Sequence record: OR352947.1
Strand: one strand, 5' to 3'
From: Escherichia phage AV117
Length of the DNA: 64,000 nucleotides
A model generated the notes under the pieces. It was not told the origin of the DNA. It ran no database searches and saw nothing but the letters and a program-made list of their open reading frames with translations. The position numbers and the translations under genes are program-made. Every line of letters begins with the position of its first letter. The stretch's first letter is position 1. Positions 4,730 through 54,586 of the stretch are shown here, in pieces.

Positions 4730-7441
4730 TCAAAAATCGAACATATCGAACAGAGATGCTTTCTTCTCGTAATCGAGTTTCGCTGCTGATGTGAATCCTT
4801 CAAGTGGTTTAATAAATGTCTTCTCAAGGAGAACAGTGTAGTCCATCCAATGAAGTACGTCGTCTTTAATTAAATCTGTGATTTCAGTACCAGAAGGCCA
4901 TGCGATACATTTATCACCGAATGGGTTTCCTTCACGTAAAGGCAGAACATATACTTTTTCACCTTCTACAACTTGCGGTGCATCGATATTACCTTTGATA
5001 GCCCGGTTATACGTCAGAATTCCACGAATATGGAATGGACATTTAGGACCAGGGAATCCACCTACATCATATTTAGCAATGTTATTCGCAGAAGATACCG
5101 ACGCGATGCTAATATAATTCAATTGACGGAATTCTTTTTCAAACTCTTTAAAATATTCTTGTAATGATTCTTCACCTTCTTGAAGCATACGACGAATACA
5201 TTCTTTAAGAGCTTTCTGTACTGCTTTAGGAGTCGAAGATTTCTGAGTCTCTAGACCCATGATTTTGAGTTTAGGCTCAGCGTAACGAGTACCTTCCATA
5301 TCCCACACGTTTAATGCATAACGTTTCTTACCAGTCCAGAATCCGCCAATACCTTTAGAACCAAGCGGAGGCCCAGCGATAGCTTCTCGGTCCATGAACA
5401 TTAAGTGTTGTTTATTGTTCATGTATTCACACATTTCACGGAAACCTCTATCAATAGCTGGTTCCATACGTTCACGTGCAAACTTATCTAAGAAGTCTAC
5501 CCAATGGTTGGTATCACGGAATTTAGATTCACCAACCTTATCGATAATTTTATCAGCAGATACGTAAATAGAGTCTGTATCACCGTAAAGAACGAAAGCT
5601 TCACCTTCTGTGCCACAAACTTCATTCAGATATTCATTAACTTTACGTTCAATCCACTGTAAAGCCATTTGACCAAATGTTGTGATTGCAGTAGCATTAC
5701 GCAAATCATAATAACGGAACCAAACGTTTCCAAGTGCACCATAAAGTGAGTTGATAAGCAATTTACGGTTAATTTGGGCAGTCATACCTGCAACTTCAGT
5801 ACGTTGAGCTCTAAACAACATTTCATTAAGAGATTTAGCAGACAACTTTTTAATCTTTTCTTTAATCTCATCACTGAAGTCGAAACGATAATCAACATCT
5901 AATGGTTCGTCAACAGAAAGATTAGGATTATGCAATGCCTCTTTAATTATTTCACCATTACGTTGAGCTGCAAGCATGTAACCTTTATGTTCTTTACGTT
6001 GATTAAAGACCTTAGTGATTTCGGTTGGAACTACACCGTCACGGTCTTTATAATACATCATGCCGTTAGGAGAACAACTGTACACATCAGAAGGACGCTC
6101 AGCGATTGCGTTAATATAATCATGCAGTGGAGCTACTTTAAACGTTCCTGCTATTGTTTCTGGGCTAATATTCACTTGGCGAATAATACTTGGATACAGA
6201 GATGTAAGGTCGAAACTCATTACATATTTGTATCGATTTGGAATAGGTTCCTTAACAAAAGCGCCAGGATAAGGTTGAACCGGGTGAGAACGACCTTGTG
6301 GAATCACCTTGTTCTGCTCTTTAAGGCTATTAAAAATAATAGCATCCCATGTTTTAATTGGACTAAACACAGATTGAATCTGTATCTTAGCATAATAACC
6401 CATGTCCAAGCTCAAGTTAATGAACTGACGTTTACCATCAATTTGCAATACACGATACACGTCGATAATGTTATAAGAAATATATCGTTGGTGATTGCTT
6501 TCACGAAGCTTAGAAATAGGGCCGTCATATTTCAGTTTACCAACGTTCAATTCAAATTCTGAAATGTAATCCAGAGAATATGATGGTTGATTGGTAAAAG
6601 AGAATTTTTTGTAAAGGTCAATGTAATCAAGAACAGAGATACCGAACAATGTAATGATTTCACGAGAACCATACATGTTTTCGATAACTTTAACACGAGT
6701 TTTACGATGTGGTGACAACCGTTTTGCTGTGGATTCGCCAAAAATATTCTTGATTCGGTTATACACATATGGAATATCAAATGACTCAACGTTCCATCCA
6801 GTCAAAATGACAGGAGTTTTCTGTTGCCAGAAGTTGAGATATTCCATCAACAATTCTTTTTCGTTATCGAACGGCATATAAATGATTTTATCGATAATTT
6901 CGGATGGAACTTCATCACCACCTTGTTCTTGAAGCTTAGCCGCAATTTCGATAGACCATTCTTCTACATTACCATATGGAGAATTCAATAGATCAAATAC
7001 GTAGAACCTGTCGTCAATTGAGTCATAATGGGTGATAGCATCAATCGGATGTTTTGCTTGTGACGGCTCAGGGAACCCGTCCGGAGATGTTACTTCGATG
7101 TCGAAGTTAGCCACACGAATTTTTGTATGGTCGTATTTGATTTCATAGTTATAAGTGTCAGACAAATACGCTAATTTGAAATCGTCCATGCCAAGTGCTT
7201 CAAGTCCGATATCTTCCATGCGTTTAATCCATTGGGAGGCATCACGCATATTGGCGAACAACTTACGAGTACACGGCTTACCGTAGATATCGAAATATTT
7301 CGTAGCCTGACTTTCTGGACAATGAGCAAACAGTGATGGTTTATATTCTACTTCACGAGTACGTTCACGGCCATTAGAATCGATGTAACGTTCAAAAATT
7401 GAATCACCAATCTGTTCAACCGTTAAGTAAAATTCTTTCAT
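4730..7441 (-). CDS. 43: DNA polymerase gp43 (family B with 3'-5' exonuclease)
   Basis: 903 aa; exo motifs FDIEV and YNIIDV, pol motifs DLTSLYPSII, KLLINSLYGALG, YGDTDS; sequence reads as RB69-type gp43. Confidence 0.97.
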   Translation of the reverse strand: MKEFYLTVEQIGDSIFERYIDSNGRERTREVEYKPSLFAHCPESQATKYFDIYGKPCTRKLFANMRDASQWIKRMEDIGLEALGMDDFKLAYLSDTYNYEIKYDHTKIRVANFDIEVTSPDGFPEPSQAKHPIDAITHYDSIDDRFYVFDLLNSPYGNVEEWSIEIAAKLQEQGGDEVPSEIIDKIIYMPFDNEKELLMEYLNFWQQKTPVILTGWNVESFDIPYVYNRIKNIFGESTAKRLSPHRKTRVKVIENMYGSREIITLFGISVLDYIDLYKKFSFTNQPSYSLDYISEFELNVGKLKYDGPISKLRESNHQRYISYNIIDVYRVLQIDGKRQFINLSLDMGYYAKIQIQSVFSPIKTWDAIIFNSLKEQNKVIPQGRSHPVQPYPGAFVKEPIPNRYKYVMSFDLTSLYPSIIRQVNISPETIAGTFKVAPLHDYINAIAERPSDVYSCSPNGMMYYKDRDGVVPTEITKVFNQRKEHKGYMLAAQRNGEIIKEALHNPNLSVDEPLDVDYRFDFSDEIKEKIKKLSAKSLNEMLFRAQRTEVAGMTAQINRKLLINSLYGALGNVWFRYYDLRNATAITTFGQMALQWIERKVNEYLNEVCGTEGEAFVLYGDTDSIYVSADKIIDKVGESKFRDTNHWVDFLDKFARERMEPAIDRGFREMCEYMNNKQHLMFMDREAIAGPPLGSKGIGGFWTGKKRYALNVWDMEGTRYAEPKLKIMGLETQKSSTPKAVQKALKECIRRMLQEGEESLQEYFKEFEKEFRQLNYISIASVSSANNIAKYDVGGFPGPKCPFHIRGILTYNRAIKGNIDAPQVVEGEKVYVLPLREGNPFGDKCIAWPSGTEITDLIKDDVLHWMDYTVLLEKTFIKPLEGFTSAAKLDYEKKASLFDMFDF

Positions 7442-15973: not shown

Positions 15974-16197
15974 TCTAGTTCCTTTGCTGCTTCAAGAGCA
16001 TCATCCAACGAATCAAATTGGTCAACGAAATCGATATTCAACGCATCGTCAGCCGTAGCATATAGCCACCATTGTTTGAATTCATATTCTAGGATAAATC
16101 CAAGCCCTTCAATCTGAGAAAGACCTAGGCTATTTGTACCAACTTCGTAACCAGCTAGACGCAGGTCATTAATCAAAGATTCTGTTAATACGCTCAT
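15970..16197 (-). CDS. hypothetical protein
   Basis: 75 aa acidic ORF, overlapping junctions. Confidence 0.5.
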   Translation of the reverse strand: MSVLTESLINDLRLAGYEVGTNSLGLSQIEGLGFILEYEFKQWWLYATADDALNIDFVDQFDSLDDALEAAKELE

Positions 16198-16526
16198 TTT
16201 ACCGCCTTAACAATTTTCAGGTCAACGAATTTTTTCTTACGTTGATTTTTCATACGACGGATAGTCTTTTCAGAGATTTCATGTTTCTGATAAGCTTTAG
16301 ATTCAACACCAAATGCAGCAACGTCAAATTCAGAAAGAATATATTGTACTAGAATTTCACGAATAGAATTACGTCCAATTTTCTGGTCGTGTTTTTGCAT
16401 GATTTCATAAAGACGGAATTCCCATGCGTCAAGGACTTGAGGAGTAACAATATTGCCGGATTCCAGAAGAGCAACAACTTTATCGAAAGCGAAAGAATTA
16501 ACTACGTTTTTGATTTTAGTAGACAT
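16194..16526 (-). CDS. hypothetical protein
   Basis: start set at ATG 16526 (MSTKIKNVV) downstream of promoter -10 at 16564..16569. Confidence 0.5.
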   Translation of the reverse strand: MSTKIKNVVNSFAFDKVVALLESGNIVTPQVLDAWEFRLYEIMQKHDQKIGRNSIREILVQYILSEFDVAAFGVESKAYQKHEISEKTIRRMKNQRKKKFVDLKIVKAVK

Positions 16527-16544: not shown

Positions 16545-16596
16545 TTTATTATCCAATGAGAGCATTATACTCTGCTCTCAAGAGTTTGTGCATTAT
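16545..16596 (-). repeat. 52-bp promoter-containing repeat, copy A
   Basis: tttattatccaa-gagagcattatactctgctctcaagagtttgt-attatt; 3 mismatches to copy at 46810..46861. Confidence 0.8.
16564..16592 (-). promoter_or_regulatory. early-type promoter (TATAAT -10, weak -35)
   Basis: minus-strand TGCACA-N17-TATAAT inside repeat copy A. Confidence 0.4.
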
Positions 16597-16832
16597 TCCG
16601 TGATAAGATAATGTAAATAGTTTGCTTGACGAACACTGATATCAACACCCATATCAAAGATACCTTTATAGAACGGGTATTTGTTTTCAGTAGAATCTAG
16701 ACTAAAAGCCTTTCCACCACAACTAACGGTAATAGCATCAGTTAAAGTGTCATATACAAACTTAATAGTTGAGCCATTCACTACGACTTCAAGACGTTTT
16801 TTCGATGTAATAACGTCTAATTCTTGTTCCAT
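16593..16832 (-). CDS. hypothetical protein
   Basis: 79 aa ORF. Confidence 0.45.
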   Translation of the reverse strand: MEQELDVITSKKRLEVVVNGSTIKFVYDTLTDAITVSCGGKAFSLDSTENKYPFYKGIFDMGVDISVRQANYLHYLITE

Positions 16833-21822: not shown

Positions 21823-21861
21823 GATAAACCCTTACCTTAAATAGATAAGGGTATTTATAAT

Positions 21862-22041
21862 TTAGTAAACGTTATAAAAGTCTCGATGAAAACGTTTATA
21901 TTGGCGAATCATTCTTTTAGTAGGACGTGTTACCGAAATGATTGAAGTCCTCATGTTCGGATTGTTTGGAGCACCAATTATAACAAATTTCCAAGATTTT
22001 TGACCGTTTGTTCTTTCGCCAAAAAATAATGCAGTTTTCAT
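21862..22041 (-). CDS. hypothetical small basic protein (paralog of 22466..22663)
   Basis: 59 aa MKTALFFGERTNGQKSWKFVIIGAPNNPNMRTSIISVTRPTKRMIRQYKRFHRDFYNVY; shares VxRPTKR...KR.HR.FY tail with 22466..22663. Confidence 0.45.
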   Translation of the reverse strand: MKTALFFGERTNGQKSWKFVIIGAPNNPNMRTSIISVTRPTKRMIRQYKRFHRDFYNVY

Positions 22042-22050
22042 AATAAGCCC

Positions 22051-22465: not shown

Positions 22466-22663
22466 TCAATATTCTCTATAAAAGTTACGATGAGAACGTT
22501 TAGCTTTGCGAAGCTGACGTTTAGTAGGACGAACTGTAAATGGTTGTCCAGAGAAAAAATTTGGTTCAGTTTTAATCAACACATACCAATCGTGTTCGCC
22601 GCTTTTTAATAAACGATATAACAATTTAACTTGCATAATAATCTCTTCCAATTTCCAAATCAA
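22466..22663 (-). CDS. hypothetical small basic protein (paralog of 21862..22041)
   Basis: 65 aa; C-terminal FTVRPTKRQLRKAKRSHRNFYREY. Confidence 0.5.
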   Translation of the reverse strand: MIWKLEEIIMQVKLLYRLLKSGEHDWYVLIKTEPNFFSGQPFTVRPTKRQLRKAKRSHRNFYREY

Positions 22664-28156: not shown

Positions 28157-29158
28157 TTATTTCAGTAAAGTTACTTCAGAGATTTCCTCCCAACCATCTT
28201 TATCAGTTGAAATAAAATCTGCTACATAAAGAGCCGTACGTAATGATACATTGCGAAGACGAGATACGTTGGCCTTCATCCAGGACAATGCTTTATACGT
28301 TTCTGCATCTGTCAGACCACGTTTCTGCATCATGTCAGTAGATAATATTACATCTTCAACTCGAACCATAATCTCTTCATTAGAGTGTACTCCGAGGTCG
28401 AGATACACTGAACGAGATACTAAAGCTTGAAGGTGTGGGGCAAGTTTCGAACCGCGTTCTAACTCTTTATCGATATCAACGTTTGTAATGAAAACGATAG
28501 TACCTTCAAACTCAAATTCTTTATCAATACCCTTATCATCGAGATAAGATGACGCAGTGCTCCAGCAAACTTTGCGTTTATCTCCAGTATCTAATGCTGC
28601 TTTAAGAAGGTTCAAGATGTCCATATCCGAGAATACGTCAACGTCGTCGATTAAGAGAACGCTGTCTGCATCACGGTTGAGCCAAAGTTGTTCGTAAAGG
28701 CCAATACCAGAGATTTTACCATTAATGCTTTTGTATTTGATGAAACCATTATCATTAGCATTATTAAGTGCTTTATCCAGAGAATACGTCTTACCAATAC
28801 CAGCTGCACCTGAAATAATGAGTGAACGAATTTTGCCATCGATAATGCCATTCGTCATCATGTTCATTACTTTAAAGCGTTTGTTGATACGAGTTTTCAT
28901 ATCTTCAGTGCTTTCAACAACTGCAACTGGTGATGTCTCAACTCCTTCCATTACGATGTCTGATTTGAAGACCCATACTCCACGTTCAGAACCATCAATC
29001 ATAACGAAAATTTTACCATCACCTAAGTGGGAACATTCAGGATTAAGCTTTGCCGGGAACCATGTCTTTGTGGCAACATAAGAACCAGAGATTTCGTTAT
29101 TACGATAGATACCTTTTTTGATTTGAACGTTGAACATTTTATTCTCCAATTTACTCAT
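28157..29158 (-). CDS. AAA+/P-loop ATPase
   Basis: 333 aa; Walker A GAAGIGKT, Walker B VLLIDDVD. Confidence 0.65.
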   Translation of the reverse strand: MSKLENKMFNVQIKKGIYRNNEISGSYVATKTWFPAKLNPECSHLGDGKIFVMIDGSERGVWVFKSDIVMEGVETSPVAVVESTEDMKTRINKRFKVMNMMTNGIIDGKIRSLIISGAAGIGKTYSLDKALNNANDNGFIKYKSINGKISGIGLYEQLWLNRDADSVLLIDDVDVFSDMDILNLLKAALDTGDKRKVCWSTASSYLDDKGIDKEFEFEGTIVFITNVDIDKELERGSKLAPHLQALVSRSVYLDLGVHSNEEIMVRVEDVILSTDMMQKRGLTDAETYKALSWMKANVSRLRNVSLRTALYVADFISTDKDGWEEISEVTLLK

Positions 29159-29175
29159 TTCGTTTCGATAGGTCT

Positions 29176-29204
29176 ATAATAACATATCCTAAAAGCATGT
29201 ACAC
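29176..29204 (-). promoter_or_regulatory. early-type promoter
   Basis: minus-strand GTGTAC-N17-TATTAT upstream of the ATPase gene. Confidence 0.45.
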
Positions 29205-29235
29205 TACTTTTTTAAAAATATTTTAACCCCCTAAA

Positions 29236-29251
29236 GGGACCCGAAGGTCCC
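29236..29251 (-). repeat. GGGACC-UUCG-GGUCCC stem-loop (copy of 47735..47750 element)
   Basis: cccccctaaagggacccgaaggtcccc shared with 47726..47751; lies 3' of upstream gene and 5' of a promoter. Confidence 0.6.
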
Positions 29252-29256
29252 CACAT

Positions 29257-31732: not shown

Positions 31733-31867
31733 TTTACCATACTCGTTTCAATAAGATTCACTATGCCGTTTACCATGTTATAAGTAAACATCGGATAATT
31801 GTATTGTACTACAACATAAGCGATAAGCAAAAGTTTCATTTTGTTCTCCATTTGTTTTGGTAGGACT

Positions 31868-31897
31868 ACTATAACATAGTCCTACCAAGACGTAAAC
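31868..31897 (-). promoter_or_regulatory. early-type promoter with perfect palindrome
   Basis: GTTTAC-N18-TATAGT; GGTAGGACTA-ctataacat-AGTCCTACC palindrome 31859..31886. Confidence 0.55.
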
Positions 31898-32157
31898 TAC
31901 CGATTGTGTTTTAAATGTTGATAAAGCTCTTCAACTTGTTTGGGGTCCAAAACAATTAAGTCATTTTCTTGGCGAAGATAAATCCATCCCTTATCCCCAG
32001 GGCCATTTTTACAAAACATCACCACCACCATATCATCATCTTCAGCGCTTTCAGGTAAAAGTTCAAGTACACCGTCTTCAGATTTTCCAGTATAATCGTA
32101 AAGCATAATATCCTCACATAATCTCGTTAACATACATTTGCAATTCGGTGTGGGCAT
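31897..32157 (-). CDS. hypothetical protein
   Basis: 86 aa ORF. Confidence 0.45.
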   Translation of the reverse strand: MPTPNCKCMLTRLCEDIMLYDYTGKSEDGVLELLPESAEDDDMVVVMFCKNGPGDKGWIYLRQENDLIVLDPKQVEELYQHLKHNR

Positions 32158-32349: not shown

Positions 32350-32359
32350 TGCTAAATGC

Positions 32360-32388
32360 AAAAAAGCCCCAACCGTAAGGAAGGGGCT
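32360..32388 (-). terminator. rho-independent terminator
   Basis: minus-strand GCCCC-N12-GGGGC hairpin followed by U6. Confidence 0.6.
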
Positions 32389-32394
32389 AGTAAA

Positions 32395-37973: not shown

Positions 37974-38246
37974 ATTATTTCTCTTAAGGTTTGGGCCATT
38001 CCGTGGCACATGAATTGTCCATTTCTGTATTTACCCATTACCGCACTTGGGCTCGACCTTATTACAGGTTGGCGGGAATCCCTCATAGAATCATGAGGTC
38101 CAGGTTGTTCCCATGTTATTTGAATGTAAATATTTTTGCCGTAATACTTATACTAGTGTGGCTTCATTAAAATTTTTTCATCGAGTCATTTCACCTCTCC
38201 AAGTAATTATGAATATACTATCACAATTTTAGGAGAAAGTAAACTG

Positions 38247-38549
38247 TTATTTACCTTTAATTACTTTAGCTGCTTCGATAGCCGCTTGCTGAAGGTCATC
38301 CATAGACATACCGAATTTAGAAGCAAAGTTATCAATTTTCCTTTCGACAGCATTCAAAGGCTTGGCCTGTTTACCTTCATTAGCGCCAGGAAGAGCGAGA
38401 ATACGCTCTTTGTCAATATAAAGGCTTACAAGTTTCTTACGGTCTTTATCGGACAAATCATGAAATGAATGGGCCTTTTTATTTATAGCGGCTTCTAATT
38501 TACCTGCACTCACTCGCGCTTCAGTAATAAATTCTTGATATGTTTTCAT
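38247..38549 (-). CDS. internal (capsid-packaged) protein with CTS
   Basis: 100 aa; N-terminal MKTYQEFITEA capsid-targeting sequence characteristic of T4 IP proteins. Confidence 0.7.
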   Translation of the reverse strand: MKTYQEFITEARVSAGKLEAAINKKAHSFHDLSDKDRKKLVSLYIDKERILALPGANEGKQAKPLNAVERKIDNFASKFGMSMDDLQQAAIEAAKVIKGK

Positions 38550-38575
38550 TTTTGTTCCTATTGGTTTAATTTATG

Positions 38576-38890
38576 TTATTCTTTAGGGAAGTTTTTAGAG
38601 TATGCATCATAAAGTTTATTACCGATGCGACGGAAGACTTTAGCTGCAAAACGGTTTTCAGGGTTTTTAATCATGATTTGCATCATGTAAGTTCCTGCAT
38701 CCGAAAGAGCTTCTTCATAGTACCCATTAATTTCTTTAAGGGTTCTACGTTTACCACCAGGTCCATCAACAGTAATTTTCCATTTACCTGTAGAAGTGCG
38801 GCTCGGTGGTTCAACTTGTTCAATCCAAATATAACCGCCTTCAACGCGTTGGTTGGCGGATTCTGCAATAAATTCTTTATACGTTTTCAT
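38576..38890 (-). CDS. internal (capsid-packaged) protein with CTS
   Basis: 104 aa; N-terminal MKTYKEFIAESA. Confidence 0.7.
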   Translation of the reverse strand: MKTYKEFIAESANQRVEGGYIWIEQVEPPSRTSTGKWKITVDGPGGKRRTLKEINGYYEEALSDAGTYMMQIMIKNPENRFAAKVFRRIGNKLYDAYSKNFPKE

Positions 38891-38953
38891 TTTTGTTTCC
38901 TTGTTTGTTTTGATAGAGTAATTATACCATATTAATACTTAAGCGTAAACAAT

Positions 38954-39214
38954 TTAAGCTTTACCGCCAGAAATAATTCCGAAGTTGTTAAAATCGTATC
39001 CAATATCGTCAACATCTACTTTAGGGCTTGCTACAACATAAGCAATTTCACTACGTTTTGCATAGGTGTTGATTTCTTTACCATCGTCACCTAAGAAAGA
39101 ATACCCATTACGTTTTAATGAGCCAAAGTCTTCCGCATCACCAATGAAAGCTTTAACTTTAAATTTAGGACCTTTGGCATCTGCGTCAATGATAAATTCT
39201 TGATACATTTTCAT
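38954..39214 (-). CDS. internal (capsid-packaged) protein with CTS
   Basis: 86 aa; N-terminal MKMYQEFIIDA. Confidence 0.65.
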   Translation of the reverse strand: MKMYQEFIIDADAKGPKFKVKAFIGDAEDFGSLKRNGYSFLGDDGKEINTYAKRSEIAYVVASPKVDVDDIGYDFNNFGIISGGKA

Positions 39215-39220
39215 TTTTCC

Positions 39221-39634
39221 TTAGTAAATTGATTTACCATAGTATTTGTACCAAGTCGGACGTTGAGCAATTTTTTCATCTAAGCGTGCTTGACTTATCG
39301 CAATGGACGCTTCGGACGGGACATAATTATTACGAAATTCGGCAGGGATGTCGGAAATATCCTGGACTGTCGTGTCCTTGATTTTGAAACCACGTTTCAA
39401 ACATTCAGCGATTAGCTCGATTTGTCGTAAACGTAAAAATTCGAGTTTGTCGTAAAAGAATGTTACGTGACCTGTGCCTAAGATAAATGTTGGAGAGATT
39501 TTAAAATCCTTTACACGTTTACCGTTTTGAACATGTTTACGGACTGCACCAAATACGCGTGGTAATTCACGATACTCAGCCATAAGATGTTGGTCGGTCA
39601 GTTCAGAAACAAGTGTTAAATTGATACGAGTCAT
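39221..39634 (-). CDS. denV: endonuclease V (pyrimidine dimer DNA glycosylase) DenV
   Basis: 138 aa from [35 protein letters not shown]; near-identical to T4 DenV. Confidence 0.95.
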
Positions 39635-42489: not shown

Positions 42490-42690
42490 TTATTTTGACA
42501 TTTCTTCGATGTCACGACGATACCCATCACGAACTTCACGAAGAGCTTCAAGGCCACACATAGGCTCGATACCAGTAATGTGAACTTGATTAATCTGATA
42601 CTCTACATCTTCTAACTGAGCGAAAACATAACGACGTTCTGCTGCACAACCAGGTTTAGCTTTACCGAAACGTTTATTCAAAGTAGTCAT
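42490..42690 (-). CDS. hypothetical protein
   Basis: start set at ATG 42690 (MTTLNKRF) downstream of promoter. Confidence 0.4.
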   Translation of the reverse strand: MTTLNKRFGKAKPGCAAERRYVFAQLEDVEYQINQVHITGIEPMCGLEALREVRDGYRRDIEEMSK

Positions 42691-42728
42691 TTTTATATCT
42701 CCATTCACTCATTTGTTTTGATAGGTCT

Positions 42729-42758
42729 ATAGTATCAACAACTACAGACCTTGTAAAC
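42729..42758 (-). promoter_or_regulatory. early-type promoter
   Basis: minus-strand GTTTAC-N18-TACTAT; AGGTCT/AGACCT inverted repeat. Confidence 0.5.
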
Positions 42759-46193: not shown

Positions 46194-46802
46194 TTATTTC
46201 AAAGAGTTAATATATTCTTGTACATCGGCAGAAGTGGTTTCGACACCGGTTGGAGTGCCATTGAACGTTTCAACACGAGTCAGAGTGTCTTCGATATCAA
46301 CCTTAGTTAGTGCAGCGATTTCAATTACATCATCGGCCGTAGAGATACCAAGGGCATTGGCTGCTCGAGTTTCACGAATGTATTCGAGTTTGATTGCCAG
46401 ATTCTGACGAGCATCATCAAGTTCAACCACCTTACGAGCAATTTCAATTCGCATAGCGGCATACCCGTCAGCTTTTGTATTAAGTTGTTCGGCAGTTCGA
46501 CGATACAGAAGACCAAGCTTAGCATGCATGGTAACATCTTGTCCTTCAGCCAGGAGCTTACGAATTTCACGTTCCTTAGAAGCTGCTTGCTTGTTCTTTT
46601 CATTAACAAGTTCGCGAATACGTTTTTCTTCATTAATAGATTTAACAGAAGCCGTTTTTAGTTCTTTGATTTGGGTAATCAACTTATCTGCAGCTGCGTT
46701 ATACTGTTCTTCGACAGTCAGATTTTTAGCCATAGCAGTACCCAGTTTAGTGCGGATGAATTCAACAAGTTTCTTCAGTGTGTTCATATTATTACCTTTC
46801 AA
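46194..46802 (-). CDS. coiled-coil protein, PspA/IM30-like pattern
   Basis: 202 aa; continuous heptad-type helices resembling phage-shock protein A; no enzymatic motif. Confidence 0.5.
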
Positions 46803-46809
46803 TTGGTGG

Positions 46810-46861
46810 TTTATTATCCAACGAGAGCATTATACTCTGCTCTCAAGAGTTTGTAAATTAT
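46810..46861 (-). repeat. 52-bp promoter-containing repeat, copy B
   Basis: matches 16545..16596 with 3 mismatches. Confidence 0.8.
46829..46857 (-). promoter_or_regulatory. early-type promoter
   Basis: minus-strand TTTACA-N17-TATAAT inside repeat copy B. Confidence 0.55.
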
Positions 46862-47085
46862 TTTTTAATCAAATTGACATAAAACTCGGCGTCTTCTGGG
46901 TGCATGCCTTCGCAGTATTCTTCAACCATGAACTTCTTAACAGCTTCATAAGGACCGCTCAGATTAAGCTCAGTTGTCCAGAATTTGGAATCTTGGACTG
47001 AATCGATACGAACTTCAGGGTGACGGTTGCGAATAACTTCTTCGGTGTATTCATAATCAACGACATCAATACTAACTGTAGCCAT
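46858..47085 (-). CDS. hypothetical protein
   Basis: 75 aa acidic ORF. Confidence 0.45.
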   Translation of the reverse strand: MATVSIDVVDYEYTEEVIRNRHPEVRIDSVQDSKFWTTELNLSGPYEAVKKFMVEEYCEGMHPEDAEFYVNLIKK

Positions 47086-47647: not shown

Positions 47648-47674
47648 AATATTCTCCCCATGTTTTGATAGGTC

Positions 47675-47703
47675 TATAGTAACACATCTAGGGAAGAAGT
47701 AAA
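47675..47703 (-). promoter_or_regulatory. early-type promoter
   Basis: minus-strand GTTTAC-N17-TACTAT. Confidence 0.55.
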
Positions 47704-47734
47704 CAACTTTTTCAGTAAGTTATAGACCCCCTAA

Positions 47735-47750
47735 AGGGACCCGAAGGTCC
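47735..47750 (-). repeat. GGGACC-UUCG-GGUCCC stem-loop (copy of 29236..29251 element)
   Basis: 26-nt ccccctaaagggacccgaaggtcccc identical to 29226..29251. Confidence 0.6.
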
Positions 47751-47757
47751 CCATTCT

Positions 47758-48384
47758 TTACTTACGAGTTTTTGCATACTGAGCAGCGTCAGCAGCCAAA
47801 CGACCTGCCTGACGAAGTTTTTCTTTAATCGCATCGTGAAGTGGTTGAGTATACTTCAAACCTTCGATAGTCAAATAAAGACGATAAAGGTCTGGGGTAT
47901 CAAGGTTGTTGATATGTTGGCCATTGCGAAGAATATTGAATTCACGAACGAGTGAAGATGTATCGGATTCAATATCGCGAACAAGCGAAGATAGTTGTTT
48001 ATATTTTTTTTCCAGGCTAGAAGTATCAAACTTAAGAGCAGGAGCTTTAGGAGTTGCTTTTACTTCCGGCTTAGGCTCAGGTTTTGCTATTGCTTTAGGG
48101 GTCGCAGGTTTAGGAATGGTAGGAGCAGGTTTTACTTTAGGCGAACCCGATTTAGCAGAAACACCACCACTAACAATATCTTTGAATGCTTTAGAAGCTC
48201 TGTAATATTCTTTTTGGCTGGAAGTGTCGATACCGTACATGGCTTGAACGTTTTTGAAAAACTCTGTACTAGTTTTTGTACCAGAAATAGCATCGTAAGC
48301 AGCTTGCCATTTCTCTTTTGTCATACGTATACCGGCTTCGGTGATTACTTCCGTTTCGGCTAAAAATTCATTAAAAGTATACAT
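47758..48384 (-). CDS. internal-protein-like protein with variant CTS and Pro/Lys-rich linker
   Basis: 208 aa; N-terminal MYTFNEFLAETE resembles MKTYxEFIxE CTS; central PKVKPAPTIPKPATPKAIAKPEPKPEVKATPK repeats. Confidence 0.55.
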   Translation of the reverse strand: MYTFNEFLAETEVITEAGIRMTKEKWQAAYDAISGTKTSTEFFKNVQAMYGIDTSSQKEYYRASKAFKDIVSGGVSAKSGSPKVKPAPTIPKPATPKAIAKPEPKPEVKATPKAPALKFDTSSLEKKYKQLSSLVRDIESDTSSLVREFNILRNGQHINNLDTPDLYRLYLTIEGLKYTQPLHDAIKEKLRQAGRLAADAAQYAKTRK

Positions 48385-48428
48385 TGATGGTCCTTAGAAA
48401 GTAGGTTTATTGTTTACTATATTTATAC

Positions 48429-48456
48429 AAAAAAGCCCCAACCTTTCGGAAGGGGC
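48429..48456 (-). terminator. rho-independent terminator
   Basis: minus-strand GCCCC-N12-GGGGC hairpin followed by U6; near-copy of 32360..32388 terminator. Confidence 0.6.
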
Positions 48457-48499
48457 TATATACCTTGTCGGGGTTTCCACCTACTAGGTAAGTGTTTTT

Positions 48500-48657
48500 A
48501 CGAAACGCCGGGATTCGAACCCGGTTATTAAGCAGTTGACGCTACTCAATATTTTTAAAAGGCCATATCTCGACCATATCCGAACGTTCCGTCAAAAACG
48601 CTACTCGGCTTACGGCAAAGATATTTCCTCGAATCGATAATTCTGTGCGCCGTTTCT
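48500..48657 (-). ncRNA. candidate tRNA-like small stable RNA
   Basis: minus-strand CCGGG-UUCGAAU-CCCGG T-arm with adjacent CGUUUCG acceptor strand and distal complementary GAAACG; about 158 nt, too long for a canonical tRNA. Confidence 0.25.
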
Positions 48658-48759
48658 GCTGTGATGTAAGGGGGTATTAACAAATCGTAAAGATTTATTA
48701 AGACCAGTCCTTACTCAGGGAACATCAGTCCGACGTCTTGCCGGTAGCGACCCGGCTTC

Positions 48760-49104
48760 TTATTTTGGCATATCATCAATTTGCTCTCGACGCCGACGCC
48801 ATAGATTAATCGCTTCATAAACACATTCAGCATTTGGTATATGGCGACAATAGTATAGTGATTCGCGTTTCTGGAACCGATGTTGTAATGGAATTTCGTT
48901 TAAAAGGTCTTTACGGTCAAAGTATTCAAAACTAGTTAACCCGGAACGGTTTTTAAGAAACTTCCAATGTCCGAATTCATTTTGAAAATAAACGTAATCA
49001 GCGTGTTGATATAACGAATTAATCAACCGGTCGGAAATAACTGTATCCTGTTCGTTAAAATAAAACGTTAAATCATGAACTACCAAATAAATATTGCCTT
49101 TCAT
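48760..49104 (-). CDS. hypothetical protein
   Basis: start set at ATG 49104 (MKGNIYLVVHDL) after GAGGAAAA, avoiding overlap with tRNA. Confidence 0.5.
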   Translation of the reverse strand: MKGNIYLVVHDLTFYFNEQDTVISDRLINSLYQHADYVYFQNEFGHWKFLKNRSGLTSFEYFDRKDLLNEIPLQHRFQKRESLYYCRHIPNAECVYEAINLWRRRREQIDDMPK

Positions 49105-49122
49105 ATTTTCCTCACTTGAAGT

Positions 49123-49199
<77 letters not shown>

Positions 49200-49202
49200 G
49201 AT

Positions 49203-49277
49203 TGGTGACCCTGGCTGGTTTCGATCCAGCTACCTATCAGTTATGAGCTGACAGCTCTCCCATTGAGCTACAGGGCC
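49203..49277 (-). tRNA. tRNA with CAU anticodon (Met or lysidine-type Ile)
   Basis: 75 nt cloverleaf: acceptor GGCCCUG/CAGGGUC, anticodon loop CUCAUAA, T-arm GCUGG-AUCGAAA-CCAGC, encoded CCA. Confidence 0.7.
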
Positions 49278-49356
49278 TTAATAACTTTCTATTATGAAAG
49301 GCACTTTAGAGCACCTTTGGTAATAGAGGGTATGAATTAATAATAACACATAATTC

Positions 49357-49872
49357 TTAAAGCAAATCAACCATTTTAACGGTTGGCAAAACAATTTCTT
49401 TTTCAATATAAGCAAATTCGACACGTTCAACTACACGCAAGAAATCGTAATCATAGTATTCAGAAGCATAACCAAGAATATCAATAAGACCTTGAGATAT
49501 CTCATCGCCTTTCACAAAGAACAGGTCGAATACACGTGATTCATCTTCTTCAGATTTATTACCGAGGTCGACTTCAATATCAAAGACCTTTTTAATAAAT
49601 TCCGGATAAAGCTGGTCTGAGAACAGCCCTTCAACCAAGTATTCATAGATTAAAAGCGAGCAATCACTGAATGGTGTATTACCACAATAACGTTCGGCTT
49701 TGGTGCTAGAATGACGGCTCTTAAATTTCTTCAAGAGATATTTAAACTGTTGGAGCTCATGCTCTTCCACTTCAAACAATGTTTTGGTTTTATAGTTGTC
49801 ACCATCATTTTCATAGGTAGTGACATCAATTACGTAACCCTTAGGAATTGTACTGCCTAAACAAATATTCAT
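49357..49872 (-). CDS. hypothetical protein
   Basis: 171 aa ORF. Confidence 0.5.
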   Translation of the reverse strand: MNICLGSTIPKGYVIDVTTYENDGDNYKTKTLFEVEEHELQQFKYLLKKFKSRHSSTKAERYCGNTPFSDCSLLIYEYLVEGLFSDQLYPEFIKKVFDIEVDLGNKSEEDESRVFDLFFVKGDEISQGLIDILGYASEYYDYDFLRVVERVEFAYIEKEIVLPTVKMVDLL

Positions 49873-49876
49873 TTAC

Positions 49877-50167
49877 TCACCGTACCATATTAATGTAATT
49901 ATATTCAATGCAACGTAATTTCAAAGGATTCTTGAAAATATCATATTCAAGAGGACCTTTTTCTGTTTCAATAAAGAAATCAAAGTTCACACTATTAAAT
50001 TTGCGGTCTTCCCAAAGTAATTTAACCTGTGAAGATGAACGGTCGACGTAAACCTTTTCAACTTCAAAGTGGGTCAAAATACCATAGTAATCGACTAGTG
50101 CTTTAGCTGCAGCTCGGTCGCTTTCATATCCATTCTCAACGGATTTTACCTTAGCATAAAGAATCAT
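49877..50167 (-). CDS. hypothetical protein
   Basis: 96 aa ORF. Confidence 0.45.
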   Translation of the reverse strand: MILYAKVKSVENGYESDRAAAKALVDYYGILTHFEVEKVYVDRSSSQVKLLWEDRKFNSVNFDFFIETEKGPLEYDIFKNPLKLRCIEYNYINMVR

Positions 50168-50526
50168 GAATGTTCCACCATTTCAAAGGTATGAGCATCA
50201 ACAATATGATACCAGTCAAAATTTTCTTCTGCGTTTTTATAAATTTCGCGAAGAGCCTCAACAGTTTTTCCTGTAGCAACAAGGTCGTCAATACCACCAA
50301 GAGGATAACAGTCATAACCAGCAAACAGAAGGAAATTAATAGTTTCTGTAGGTTCTGGATGCAGAACTCCGTTATCGTCTACCACTTCAAAGAAAGTGTA
50401 AGAAGGAGTACAAGTTTTAATCCAGGCCCATGCTTGAGCTGCTGAATCAAACGGATTACGGAATAAACGACAATCAGGGTCTTTAGAAGGATTTGCTTCA
50501 AAATCAGCATATACATGATATTTCAT
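50164..50526 (-). CDS. hypothetical protein
   Basis: start set at ATG 50526 (MKYHVYADF). Confidence 0.45.
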   Translation of the reverse strand: MKYHVYADFEANPSKDPDCRLFRNPFDSAAQAWAWIKTCTPSYTFFEVVDDNGVLHPEPTETINFLLFAGYDCYPLGGIDDLVATGKTVEALREIYKNAEENFDWYHIVDAHTFEMVEHS

Positions 50527-50527
50527 T

Positions 50528-50734
50528 TTACTCACCTTTTGCAATTTTATCCATAACGATAGCGATTAAGCCGATTAGAAATGCTACTACCAATGAGATA
50601 GAGTTTTCAGTTGTTGTCAGTAGTCCACAAATGAATCCTACAAACATCGAAAAACTAAAAGCCATTGAAGCAATTACTACAGCAACATTACGAATCAGTT
50701 CAGCGCGTTTCATTTTATTTCTCCATTTACTCAT
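50528..50734 (-). CDS. hypothetical membrane protein
   Basis: 68 aa; two hydrophobic segments. Confidence 0.45.
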   Translation of the reverse strand: MSKWRNKMKRAELIRNVAVVIASMAFSFSMFVGFICGLLTTTENSISLVVAFLIGLIAIVMDKIAKGE

Positions 50735-50750
50735 TTGATTTGATAGGACT

Positions 50751-50780
50751 ACTATAACATAGTCCTATCGTGTTGTAAAC
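50751..50780 (-). promoter_or_regulatory. early-type promoter with perfect palindrome
   Basis: GTTTAC-N18-TATAGT; cassette identical to 44012..44050. Confidence 0.55.
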
Positions 50781-50783
50781 TAC

Positions 50784-51071
50784 TTACAGAAGAGTTTTTG
50801 CAATAATTTTAAGCTGAGCTACAGAAATATGCTTAGCTTTAAACAGTGCAGTCTCTTCAGCCGGAGAGATAACAATAGTAGCGCCATCTTTCTTAGCAGA
50901 CCATCCATCCCCTAAGTAAACAGTACCTTTTACTTCTTCGCCGTCAACCAGACTAATCATTGGTTTACCCTCACGTCCTTTATTTGCTTTAATAACTTCG
51001 GAAGTAAGGGTTGCTTCAGTCAGAGTAGAAACGTTAGCAACAGGTGATATAAATTCTTTATAGGTTTTCAT
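50784..51071 (-). CDS. ipI: internal protein I-like (capsid-packaged, CTS)
   Basis: 95 aa; N-terminal MKTYKEFISPVA; sits next to 57B as ipI does in T4. Confidence 0.7.
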   Translation of the reverse strand: MKTYKEFISPVANVSTLTEATLTSEVIKANKGREGKPMISLVDGEEVKGTVYLGDGWSAKKDGATIVISPAEETALFKAKHISVAQLKIIAKTLL

Positions 51072-51105
51072 TTTATTTCCTTGAGGTCGTTTATTTGATA
51101 GGATG

Positions 51106-53312: not shown

Positions 53313-54134
53313 TTAAGATTTCCAAACAGTATTCGCAGAGAAACGTTTTCCTTTTGACATAAACTGTTGAGTAGGTAACATGATTATGTTAGCCCAGTCT
53401 TTAGGAGCTATTTCTGTTATTGTTCCTCTAATGTGGCCTGGCAGGTATGCTTTAATCATTTTGTCAGCACCTTGAAATCCTTTCACCTTGCTCCAGTCTA
53501 TCTTCAACTTTGTGTTATTAGTAATAGTAGTTGTGCTAGCATATTGCTTCAGCAATTCTTCAAGAAACTGTTGTCGTGCTTTAGGCGGGATATAGTGCAA
53601 GTTTAACCCATACATCAAATTATGTTTACCTAATCCTAAATAAATAATCAAAGGATATCGGTCCCAATACGGCAGAGTATCTTTATGTTTAGCATCATAC
53701 ACGTAAGTATAAATTTTGCCTGGCGTAGGCTTGACTACTTTATGACCTTTTACACTTTTCTTAATTGTTTCAACAAACCATTTAGATGATTTGTTGTTTA
53801 CTGCTGCGCCTTCATTTCTAATCTTTTCTCGTATTGAACTGCGAAACGAGTTTATCATCAGAAGTTGACGTTCTTGCTTATTGAGTTTATTTTTAGGTTT
53901 AGATTCAAGCGTTTCAATTTTCTGTGCAGTCTTAATAGATGATGCATATCTAGACATTGCAGATGTAAACGACGAGTATTTTATTCCTTTTGATTCTGCA
54001 AATGCTTTTGCCGTGATTCCTTTCTCTTTAGCTTTCTTGTATTCTAATCCTATCTCAATCCATTTTCTTTCATTCATAGACTGAGCAATCTTAGGGGCTT
54101 GTACGCCTTCAGATATAATTTGGAATATGCTCAT
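53313..54134 (-). CDS. 2: DNA end protector gp2
   Basis: 273 aa; T4 gp2 is 274 aa; position between 3 and 4. Confidence 0.85.
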
Positions 54135-54136
54135 AA

Positions 54137-54586
54137 TTACCCCTTGTATCCGAGTTTTCTAAGACCATCTTCGGTTAGAACTCGGAATTTTATATTTCTC
54201 TTTTCAGCAACAGCTGAGGCAGCTTTCCATTTGTCACAGTTCACAGACCAGGTATATATTTCATTCATATAACGTTTCTTTGCTGCAGTCGTAAGATTTG
54301 CAGGCTTAATAGGTGGTTGAGTTTCTTTCTTTGGTTTTATTTCTACAAAGAACTCTTGACCTGATGCATCTTTCATCCATATGTCCATATAGTATCGACG
54401 TTTCTTACCTTCAGCATTACAAAAATATGGAATTACTGCTGTTTCACTACCCCATGCAATAATTTCTGGATTTTTATCCAACCATTCGAAAAAGAATTTT
54501 TCCCAGTTTGAACGATACGTTATTTTGGTATGGTCTCCACGGTATTTTTTTAAATTTTTTGGGACCCATTTACCAGAGTAGGCCAT
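54137..54586 (-). CDS. 4: head completion protein gp4
   Basis: 150 aa from [40 protein letters not shown] matching T4 gp4. Confidence 0.88.

Follow-up and report, generated by a model that had tools for sequence, protein, structure and literature searches.

Genes 55.2 and e.6 of Escherichia phage AV117 (sequence record OR352947.1) sit on the minus strand among the early genes, that is, on the early-gene strand, and each of them is preceded by a copy of the same short cassette in which a predicted early promoter is combined with a hairpin (copy A before 55.2, copy B before e.6; Table 1). The window, by which we mean the whole stretch of 64,000 nucleotides that was analyzed, can be assigned to a Mosigvirus (RB69/JS09 group of T4-type phages) with a T4-like gene order. 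Around copy A it is 99.5% identical to Escherichia phage vB_EcoM-RPN187 (RPN187 hereafter), a Mosigvirus and the closest relative of the window, and with the RB69 annotation as a guide its early genes run on the minus strand in T4 order. The RB69 counterpart of the copy A site lies between RB69ORF075c and gp55.2. In the window, the RB69ORF075c-like ORF of 79 aa has no Pfam match, and it is missing from the equivalent position in another T4-type genus. The 30-kb interval between the two copies holds nrdH, nrdG, nrdD, gene 49 (endonuclease VII), pin, nrdC, tk, regB, denV, e (lysozyme), and nudE.

Table 1. Coordinates in the window of the two cassettes, their parts, and the adjoining genes
Feature	Position	Strand	Basis or product
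Copy A, early promoter/hairpin cassette before gene 55.2	16545..16597	-	alignment, repeat search
Copy A -35, TGCACA	16587..16592	-	promoter scan
Copy A -10, TATAAT, 17-nt spacer	16564..16569	-	promoter scan
Copy A hairpin, 8 bp: TGAGAGCA, loop GAGTATAA, TGCTCTCA	16557..16580	-	RNA fold, covariation
Copy B, early promoter/hairpin cassette before gene e.6	46810..46862	-	alignment, repeat search
Copy B -35, TTTACA	46852..46857	-	promoter scan
Copy B -10, TATAAT, 17-nt spacer	46829..46834	-	promoter scan
Copy B hairpin, like that of copy A except outermost pair T-G	46822..46845	-	RNA fold
Upstream ORF of copy A	16593..16832	-	79 aa, RB69ORF075c-like; TAA stop inside repeat
Gene 55.2, downstream of copy A	16194..16526	-	110 aa, Pfam DUF7570
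frd.3 homolog, upstream of copy B	46858..47085	-	75 aa, full-length Pfam Phage_FRD3; swapped between isolates
Gene e.6, downstream of copy B	46194..46787	-	197 aa

Realignment of 16545-16597 with 46810-46862 gave 50 identical positions of 53 in direct orientation; the 52-bp direct repeat 30 kb apart that a first-pass annotation of the window had described is thus real, though one nucleotide longer, at 53 nt. The minus-strand sequence is AATAATGCACAAACTCTTGAGAGCAGAGTATAATGCTCTCATTGGATAATAAA for copy A (16597->16545) and AATAATTTACAAACTCTTGAGAGCAGAGTATAATGCTCTCGTTGGATAATAAA for copy B (46862->46810). A repeat search of the window returned them as a two-copy family of 53 nt with 94% identity and a spacing of 30265 nt, and a search allowing three mismatches matched only these two sites, with 0.00 matches expected from 100 dinucleotide-preserving shuffles. 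Two of the three differences fall within the -35 hexamer (TGCACA in A, TTTACA in B), as the annotation had also stated, and the third is an A/G just past the core six pairs of the hairpin, in the outermost pair (T-A in A, T-G in B). In the alignment the similarity ends at both repeat edges, and the ORFs that flank A are unrelated to those that flank B by alignment and by Pfam, indicating that the repeat is purely intergenic.

Each copy is packed into an intergenic gap of roughly 70 nt, in which the upstream stop codon, the -35 box, a 17-nt spacer, the -10 box, a leader, a Shine-Dalgarno sequence, and an ATG follow one another in this order. The TAA stops of the upstream ORFs lie inside the repeat, in an AT-rich stretch (16593-16595 in A, 46858-46860 in B), and the Shine-Dalgarno sequence (GAGG or AAGG) followed by the ATG is found 37-41 nt past the -10 box. 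The promoter scan matched the consensus at 10 of 12 positions in copy A (TGCACA-17-TATAAT at 16592-16564, minus strand) and at 11 of 12 in copy B (TTTACA-17-TATAAT at 46857-46829, minus strand), which bears out the earlier description of the repeat as a promoter; in the record of phage NBG1, the counterpart of copy B carries a promoter annotation by its depositors. In copy A, the -10 box occupies the hairpin loop plus the first base of the 3' arm. RNA folding of the 53-mers gave -13.8 kcal/mol (z -3.5) for copy A and -12.6 kcal/mol (z -3.1) for copy B. At gathering thresholds Rfam returned nothing at either copy and two tRNAs only in the window. A terminator scan had no match at either copy and no U-run follows the hairpin, so that a classical intrinsic-terminator role is doubtful, and with no support from the scans at A or B this candidate was set aside.

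Mosigviruses differ to an unusual degree in the -35 box of the 55.2 promoter (TGCACA, CGCACA, TATACA, TGTACA), which adjoins two different allelic 3' ends of ORF075c. It looks as if a boundary of exchanged DNA might run through the -35 hexamer of copy A.

The layout of both gaps is reminiscent of the promoter-early stem-loop (PeSL) cassettes of T4-type phages (Arbiol et al. 2010, PMC2839356). A PeSL begins with the stop codon of the upstream gene in AT-rich sequence, continues with a sigma-70-like pair of -35 and -10 boxes and with a stem-loop, and closes with a Shine-Dalgarno sequence and a start codon; its stem-loop lies mostly between the boxes or overlaps the -10 box, G-T pairs included, but may also overlap the -35 box or flank the promoter; and PeSLs cluster in hyperplastic regions, in association with insertions and deletions of ORFs (PMC2839356). 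They were described there for RB49/phi1, with no mention of RB69; the class was later extended to PST/T4 and nt-1/KVP40 (Comeau et al. 2014, PMC4122927). Two further traits connected with PeSLs are termination or attenuation of upstream transcription by the stem-loop and recombination between nearby cassettes that yields mini-circles or deletions. Copies A and B match this consensus, both being intergenic, with the upstream stop in an AT-rich stretch and then the two boxes, the stem-loop, the Shine-Dalgarno sequence, and the start codon. Moreover, the cassettes of the window are clustered, with 20 predicted early promoters in 16-51 kb, and they adjoin ORF insertions, deletions, and replacements between close relatives. 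Terminator activity was measured for one phi1 PeSL stem-loop, and PeSL stems frequently have polyG...polyC tracts (PMC2839356), whereas the A/B stem is short, is not of the GGGG...CCCC form, and has no U-run; therefore, the terminator activity of the phi1 cassette cannot simply be assumed here.

T4 early promoters belong to an extended UP/-35/TGn/-10 class, and the review that describes them has no mention of dyad symmetry (Hinton 2010 review, PMC2988021). Copies A and B resemble them in the TTTACA-type -35 box, the 17-nt spacer, the TATAAT, and their location on the same strand before prereplicative genes, but the -35 box of copy A (TGCACA) departs more from the consensus, and both copies lack TG ahead of the -10 box. 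In the T4 genes e, soc, 49, and I-TevI, hairpins that contain a promoter hide the ribosome-binding site in read-through RNA, with a 3' arm that covers the Shine-Dalgarno sequence or the AUG and an internal promoter that is late. The A/B cassettes are like these in that the promoter lies inside the hairpin, so that their own transcripts would be without the 5' arm and only read-through RNA would fold; in contrast, about 25 nt lie between the 3' arm of A and B and the Shine-Dalgarno sequence, and their promoter is an early one.

Beyond what the first-pass annotation had reported, we find that the pair belongs to a family of four copies, that this family is old and common to other T4-type genera, and that its hairpin is under selection. 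The rebuilt RPN187 genome has four occurrences of the family core, all of them on the early-gene strand, preceding 55.2, e.6, ndd (164.6 kb), and a 99-aa gene of the pseT region (137.0 kb). An exact-core scan of IMG/VR found 6 loci only, too few for analysis, and the relaxed pattern ACAAACTCT-N7-AGAGTATAAT found 37 loci, of which seven loci with five sequence types, being without the stem and without a T4-like context, were taken as unrelated and excluded from the alignment. In other T4-type genera the cassette stands before orthologs of motB, 55.2, ndd, and the pseT-region gene as well as before several variable genes, and the 55.2 orthologs behind it begin with MSQAIKNVLNSFAFDK. T4 itself carries the cassette before motB (ACAAACTCTTGGGACCAGAGTATAATGGTCCC), with the same spacer and loop; this match, of about 80%, sits between motB.1 and motB. 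The cef-motB gap was considered as the T4 cassette site and rejected, for a different dyad promoter lies there. The T4 RefSeq record has no promoter features, a literature search with the cassette sequence found nothing, and in the consulted sections of PMC2839356 and PMC4122927 we found no tracing of orthologs across genera with compensatory stem changes.

Across the family the spacer and the loop are nearly invariant and the stem varies. The stems include GAGAGC/GCTCTC, AGGAGC/GCTCCT, GGGACC/GGTCC(C/T), GGGAGC/GCTCC(C/T), GGGGTC/GACCCC, GGGGCC/GGTCCC, and GGGATC/GGTCCT. In the alignment used for covariation, which holds 17 distinct family members, the 8-pair helix shows a standard pair in 99.3% of cells, and four of the eight stem pairs are changed on both sides (16 cells); in controls with the 3' partner slid by 1-3 columns, 35-53% of cells were paired. 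Two more compensated pairs are present within the genus in the copy A allele of RB69, CGAGAGA/TCTCTCG. The stem is thus kept by compensatory changes and is under selection. Furthermore, its wobble cells number 12 for G-U/U-G against 1 for C-A in the same alignment, an asymmetry which favours a structure of the sense strand, either RNA or single-stranded non-template DNA, over a symmetric duplex binding site.

Hairpins of this kind are not restricted to the A/B family. A search for early promoters that required the motif together with a downstream Shine-Dalgarno sequence and an ORF gave 20 candidates at 16-51 kb of the window; it replaced a first, stricter pattern whose 17 sites included matches in coding regions. 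Perfect stems of at least 6 bp are present in 12 of the 20 candidates and of at least 7 bp in 8 (the longest 12 bp), against a shuffle expectation of 1.5 and 0.37 promoters, respectively, and a 7-bp stem occurs in 3% of random genomic 39-mers. The loop overlaps the -10 box in most of the stemmed candidates, and in three the hairpin lies within the spacer.

Similar dyads can be seen in T4: inverted repeats of 6-11 bp surround the -10 box in the promoter-like stretches of the cef-motB gap and ahead of motB, e.6, and e.7 (6483-6652, 7142-7290, 69906-69967, and 70304-70359), for example CAGTAGTTGAT..ATCAACTACTG and, where the record has N, ATAGGCTNAT..ATGAGCCTAT. The dyads of the T4 e.6 and e.7 promoters are unrelated in sequence to the A/B family. 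Two G+C-rich, terminator-like hairpins are also repeated in the window, namely GGGGACCTTCGGGTCCC at 29162-29253 and 47662-47753 and GCCCCAACC..GGGGC at 32356-32389 and 48425-48458. The GGGGACCTTCGGGTCCC-type pair lies directly upstream of an early promoter, in the GGGG...CCCC style of PeSLs, and has an 80% match in RPN187 between frd.2 and gene 32.

How the hairpin acts can be approached from where transcription would begin. As predicted promoters, copy A would drive 55.2 and copy B would drive e.6, and by analogy with T4 and phi1/RB49 the host RNA polymerase should start about 7 nt past the -10 box, at the end of the 3' arm. With such a start the promoter's own transcript would be without the 5' arm, and the hairpin would form only in RNA that reads through from the upstream gene. 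In that RNA it may serve as an attenuator or as a 3'-end stabiliser that insulates each small gene module; attenuation of the read-through RNA or protection of its 3' end is the most likely role of the hairpin, with a probability that we put close to, and slightly under, one half. With somewhat less assurance we suggest that the hairpin is dual-coded, its loop being the -10 box in the DNA, and the folded form, present only in read-through RNA, being a U-run-free signal for processing, stability, or attenuation that insulates the modules. If the dual-coded reading is true, the sense-strand covariation seen across T4-type genera would mark the hairpin as a conserved cis-acting RNA motif that the promoter family shares and that gene conversion keeps uniform within genomes.

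It is also conceivable that the dyad works at the level of the DNA, either as a palindromic operator through which a dimeric phage regulator shuts off early promoters or as a cruciform that assists promoter melting or draws in a structure-specific nuclease with which recombination would begin. Such a function would fit the dyads centred on the -10 box in many early promoters and would offer an answer to the shut-off of T4 early transcription, which is still unexplained (PMC2988021), and the PeSL authors themselves speculated on a protein that targets the stem-loop (PMC2839356). However, stems are wholly different between promoter families (GAGAGC, GATAGGACTA, ACGATAGGAAGA, AGGTCTAT), which makes one sequence-specific binder unlikely, and the covariation, with its excess of G-U/U-G over C-A cells, favours the sense strand over both a duplex site and a two-strand cruciform. 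We therefore regard a DNA-level element as improbable, though less so than the other alternatives treated below.

Gene exchange takes place at the cassettes. In blastn comparison with RPN187, homology at 96% identity extends through a 4.1-kb block and stops exactly at 46863, the 5' edge of the copy B core (at the -35 box), to be picked up again at 47083, beside the start codon of frd.3 (ATG at 47085); this stop and restart indicate that exactly one ORF has been swapped. The slot upstream of copy B holds the frd.3 homolog in the window, an unrelated 82-aa ORF in RPN187, and e.7 in T4. The frd.3 homolog of the window has 58.7% identity to T4 frd.3. A frd.3 ORF of at least 90% identity is present in 138 records, adjoining copy B in those with coordinates checked, and the homolog sits in the e.6-e.8 region in the window, in RB69, and in the other Mosigvirus records checked. 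Matches to the frd.3 homolog in T4 and in most of the other T4-type genera fall at about 142-147 kb, which we take to be the frd-gene 32 region of the T4 map. These different positions among genera indicate that the ORF has moved between cassette-bounded slots.

Breakpoints of homology lie within 30 nt of a predicted cassette in 45% of cases against RPN187 and 40% against RB69, compared with 7% for random positions, and since the list of 20 promoters misses some cassettes (e.g., 31836-31898) this enrichment is an underestimate. Copy A adjoins the ORF075c insertion relative to another T4-type genus; its surroundings are colinear in both Mosigvirus genomes compared in full, with an isolate-level breakpoint at copy B only. 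Two more clear cases come from other cassette families. At 53877-54285 of RPN187, an 89-aa ORF, gp094, is flanked by two promoter cassettes of another family, and the counterpart of this region in the window is a single hybrid cassette (29133-29253, minus strand) with the crossover inside a shared ATGTTATTATAGACCTATC, which points to a repeat-mediated deletion or insertion of one ORF module. An extra cassette with a 66-aa ORF (N-terminus MTTLNKRFGKAKPGC) at 42490-42750 on the minus strand is missing from RPN187 and RB69; promoter cassettes at about 42489 and 42758 enclose this module. Taken as genome comparisons, these cases establish the cassettes as places where exchange happens.

The copies also appear to exchange sequence with each other. 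Copies A, B, and C of Mosigviruses have an identical 33-nt core; of these 33 positions, 5-6 are different when the orthologous 55.2 and ndd cassettes from other genera are compared with the Mosigvirus copies or with one another. In phage F2, copy A has RB69-type flanks and the core of copy B, with three linked changes within 13 nt, and the copy A alleles of further Mosigviruses are set apart by linked patches matching copy B. At the A/G position past the stem, A and B carry the same base within RPN187 (A, A) and within F2 (G, G); in the window they differ. From this handful of alleles, it is likely that the copy A patches were converted from copy B.

All of these observations lead us to a reading that we hold to be highly probable: the two copies are paralogs within a hairpin-bearing, PeSL-type family of sigma-70-type early promoters, they mark swaps of small genes, and no viable 30-kb crossover takes place between A and B. 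An identity of about 45 nt would suffice for T4-type recombination, allowing short conversion tracts and swaps of neighbouring ORF modules, while crossing over between A and B would entail the loss or doubling of 30 kb, and its products would presumably not be viable. The first-pass annotation had proposed that the direct repeats can mediate deletion of the intervening 30 kb or gene exchange between isolates. Gene exchange is retained in part, as the one-ORF swap at copy B and the conversion-like patches in copy A.

The proposed deletion is not supported by the comparison with related genomes, which the annotation had itself named as a check. If the A/B pair were a recombination substrate whose main outcome is deletion or duplication of 30 kb, deletion variants would be expected. 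In favour of this, the copies are in direct orientation with near identity over 45-50 nt, neighbouring cassettes of another family have recombined with the loss of one ORF, and T4-type recombination is said to need <50 bp of homology (PMC2839356). Yet neither recombinant junction was found in about 160 Mosigvirus records: a chimeric query for the frd.3/55.2 deletion junction gave 162 matching Mosigvirus records and one for the reciprocal ORF075c/e.6 junction gave 161, and none of them covered at least 80% of the query at a single place. The interval, moreover, contains genes 49 and e, both of which are essential in T4, together with nrdD, nrdG, tk, regB, and denV, and a 30-kb duplication would, we infer, exceed the headful capacity. 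That deletion or duplication is the main outcome of the pair therefore seems very improbable.

Even less credible is a convergence in which two strong promoters of separate origin came to resemble each other by approaching the T4 early-promoter consensus. The extended consensus common to T4 early promoters does reach past the -35 and -10 boxes (PMC2988021), and many other promoter-like repeats are found in the window, but the identity between A and B spans the whole 17-nt spacer and about 19 nt past the -10 box, which the polymerase leaves unspecified, and the other early promoters of the window have quite different spacers and stems. Chance expectation is zero in the shuffles, and the same spacer precedes orthologous genes in other genera. 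The shared non-consensus spacer and leader sequence indicates that the copies descend from a common cassette rather than from convergence on a consensus. The weakest candidate takes the copies for what is left of a segmental duplication, or for the two ends of a mobile 30-kb island: direct repeats do bracket a 30-kb segment rich in small ORFs of unknown function, but the flanking ORFs are unrelated (DUF7570 vs. e.6; an ORF of no family vs. Phage_FRD3), the segment follows a T4-like gene order (nrdH, 49, tk, regB, denV, e), RPN187 has two further copies, at 137 kb and 164.6 kb, and neither the RB69 nor the RPN187 annotation shows an integrase or transposase within the interval.

Understood as paralogous PeSL-type promoters, the A/B pair is ordinary T4-type regulatory architecture and neither a deletion-prone structure nor the boundary of a mobile element. 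The cassette is of a known kind, found here in an RB69-like phage, and will be no surprise to a T4 specialist. It offers, though, a clean and alignable PeSL example, a promoter family that can be traced as orthologs (55.2, ndd, motB) across genera and in which the same 45-nt core marks both an exact one-ORF swap and conversion-like patches. The family may thus provide a simple test system for the function of PeSL stems and for the short-homology shuffling of small phage genes.

Several other features of the window were noted in the same comparisons. The stretch at 47710-51049 (minus strand) is its most divergent part relative to RPN187, and the tRNA genes at 49123-49277 (minus strand) are two only, Arg-tct and Met-cat, as in RB69, compared with ten in RPN187. 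Between gene 49 and pin, about 190 nt at 21859-22050 are missing in RPN187, and RB69 has the small ORF087c there; a 55-nt direct repeat of 80% identity (21873-21927 and 22477-22531) lies near this gap. Repeated segments of 30-37 nt on the minus strand (38520-38556, 38861-38897, 39185-39221, and 51042-51078) cover the starts of several small ORFs, and one translated ORF of this group has an N-terminus like MKTYKEFI. These repeated starts (38520-39221, 51042-51078) look like shared capsid-targeting N-termini of T4-type internal proteins. The gene content of the block differs from both RPN187 and RB69, with breaks at 38072-38862.
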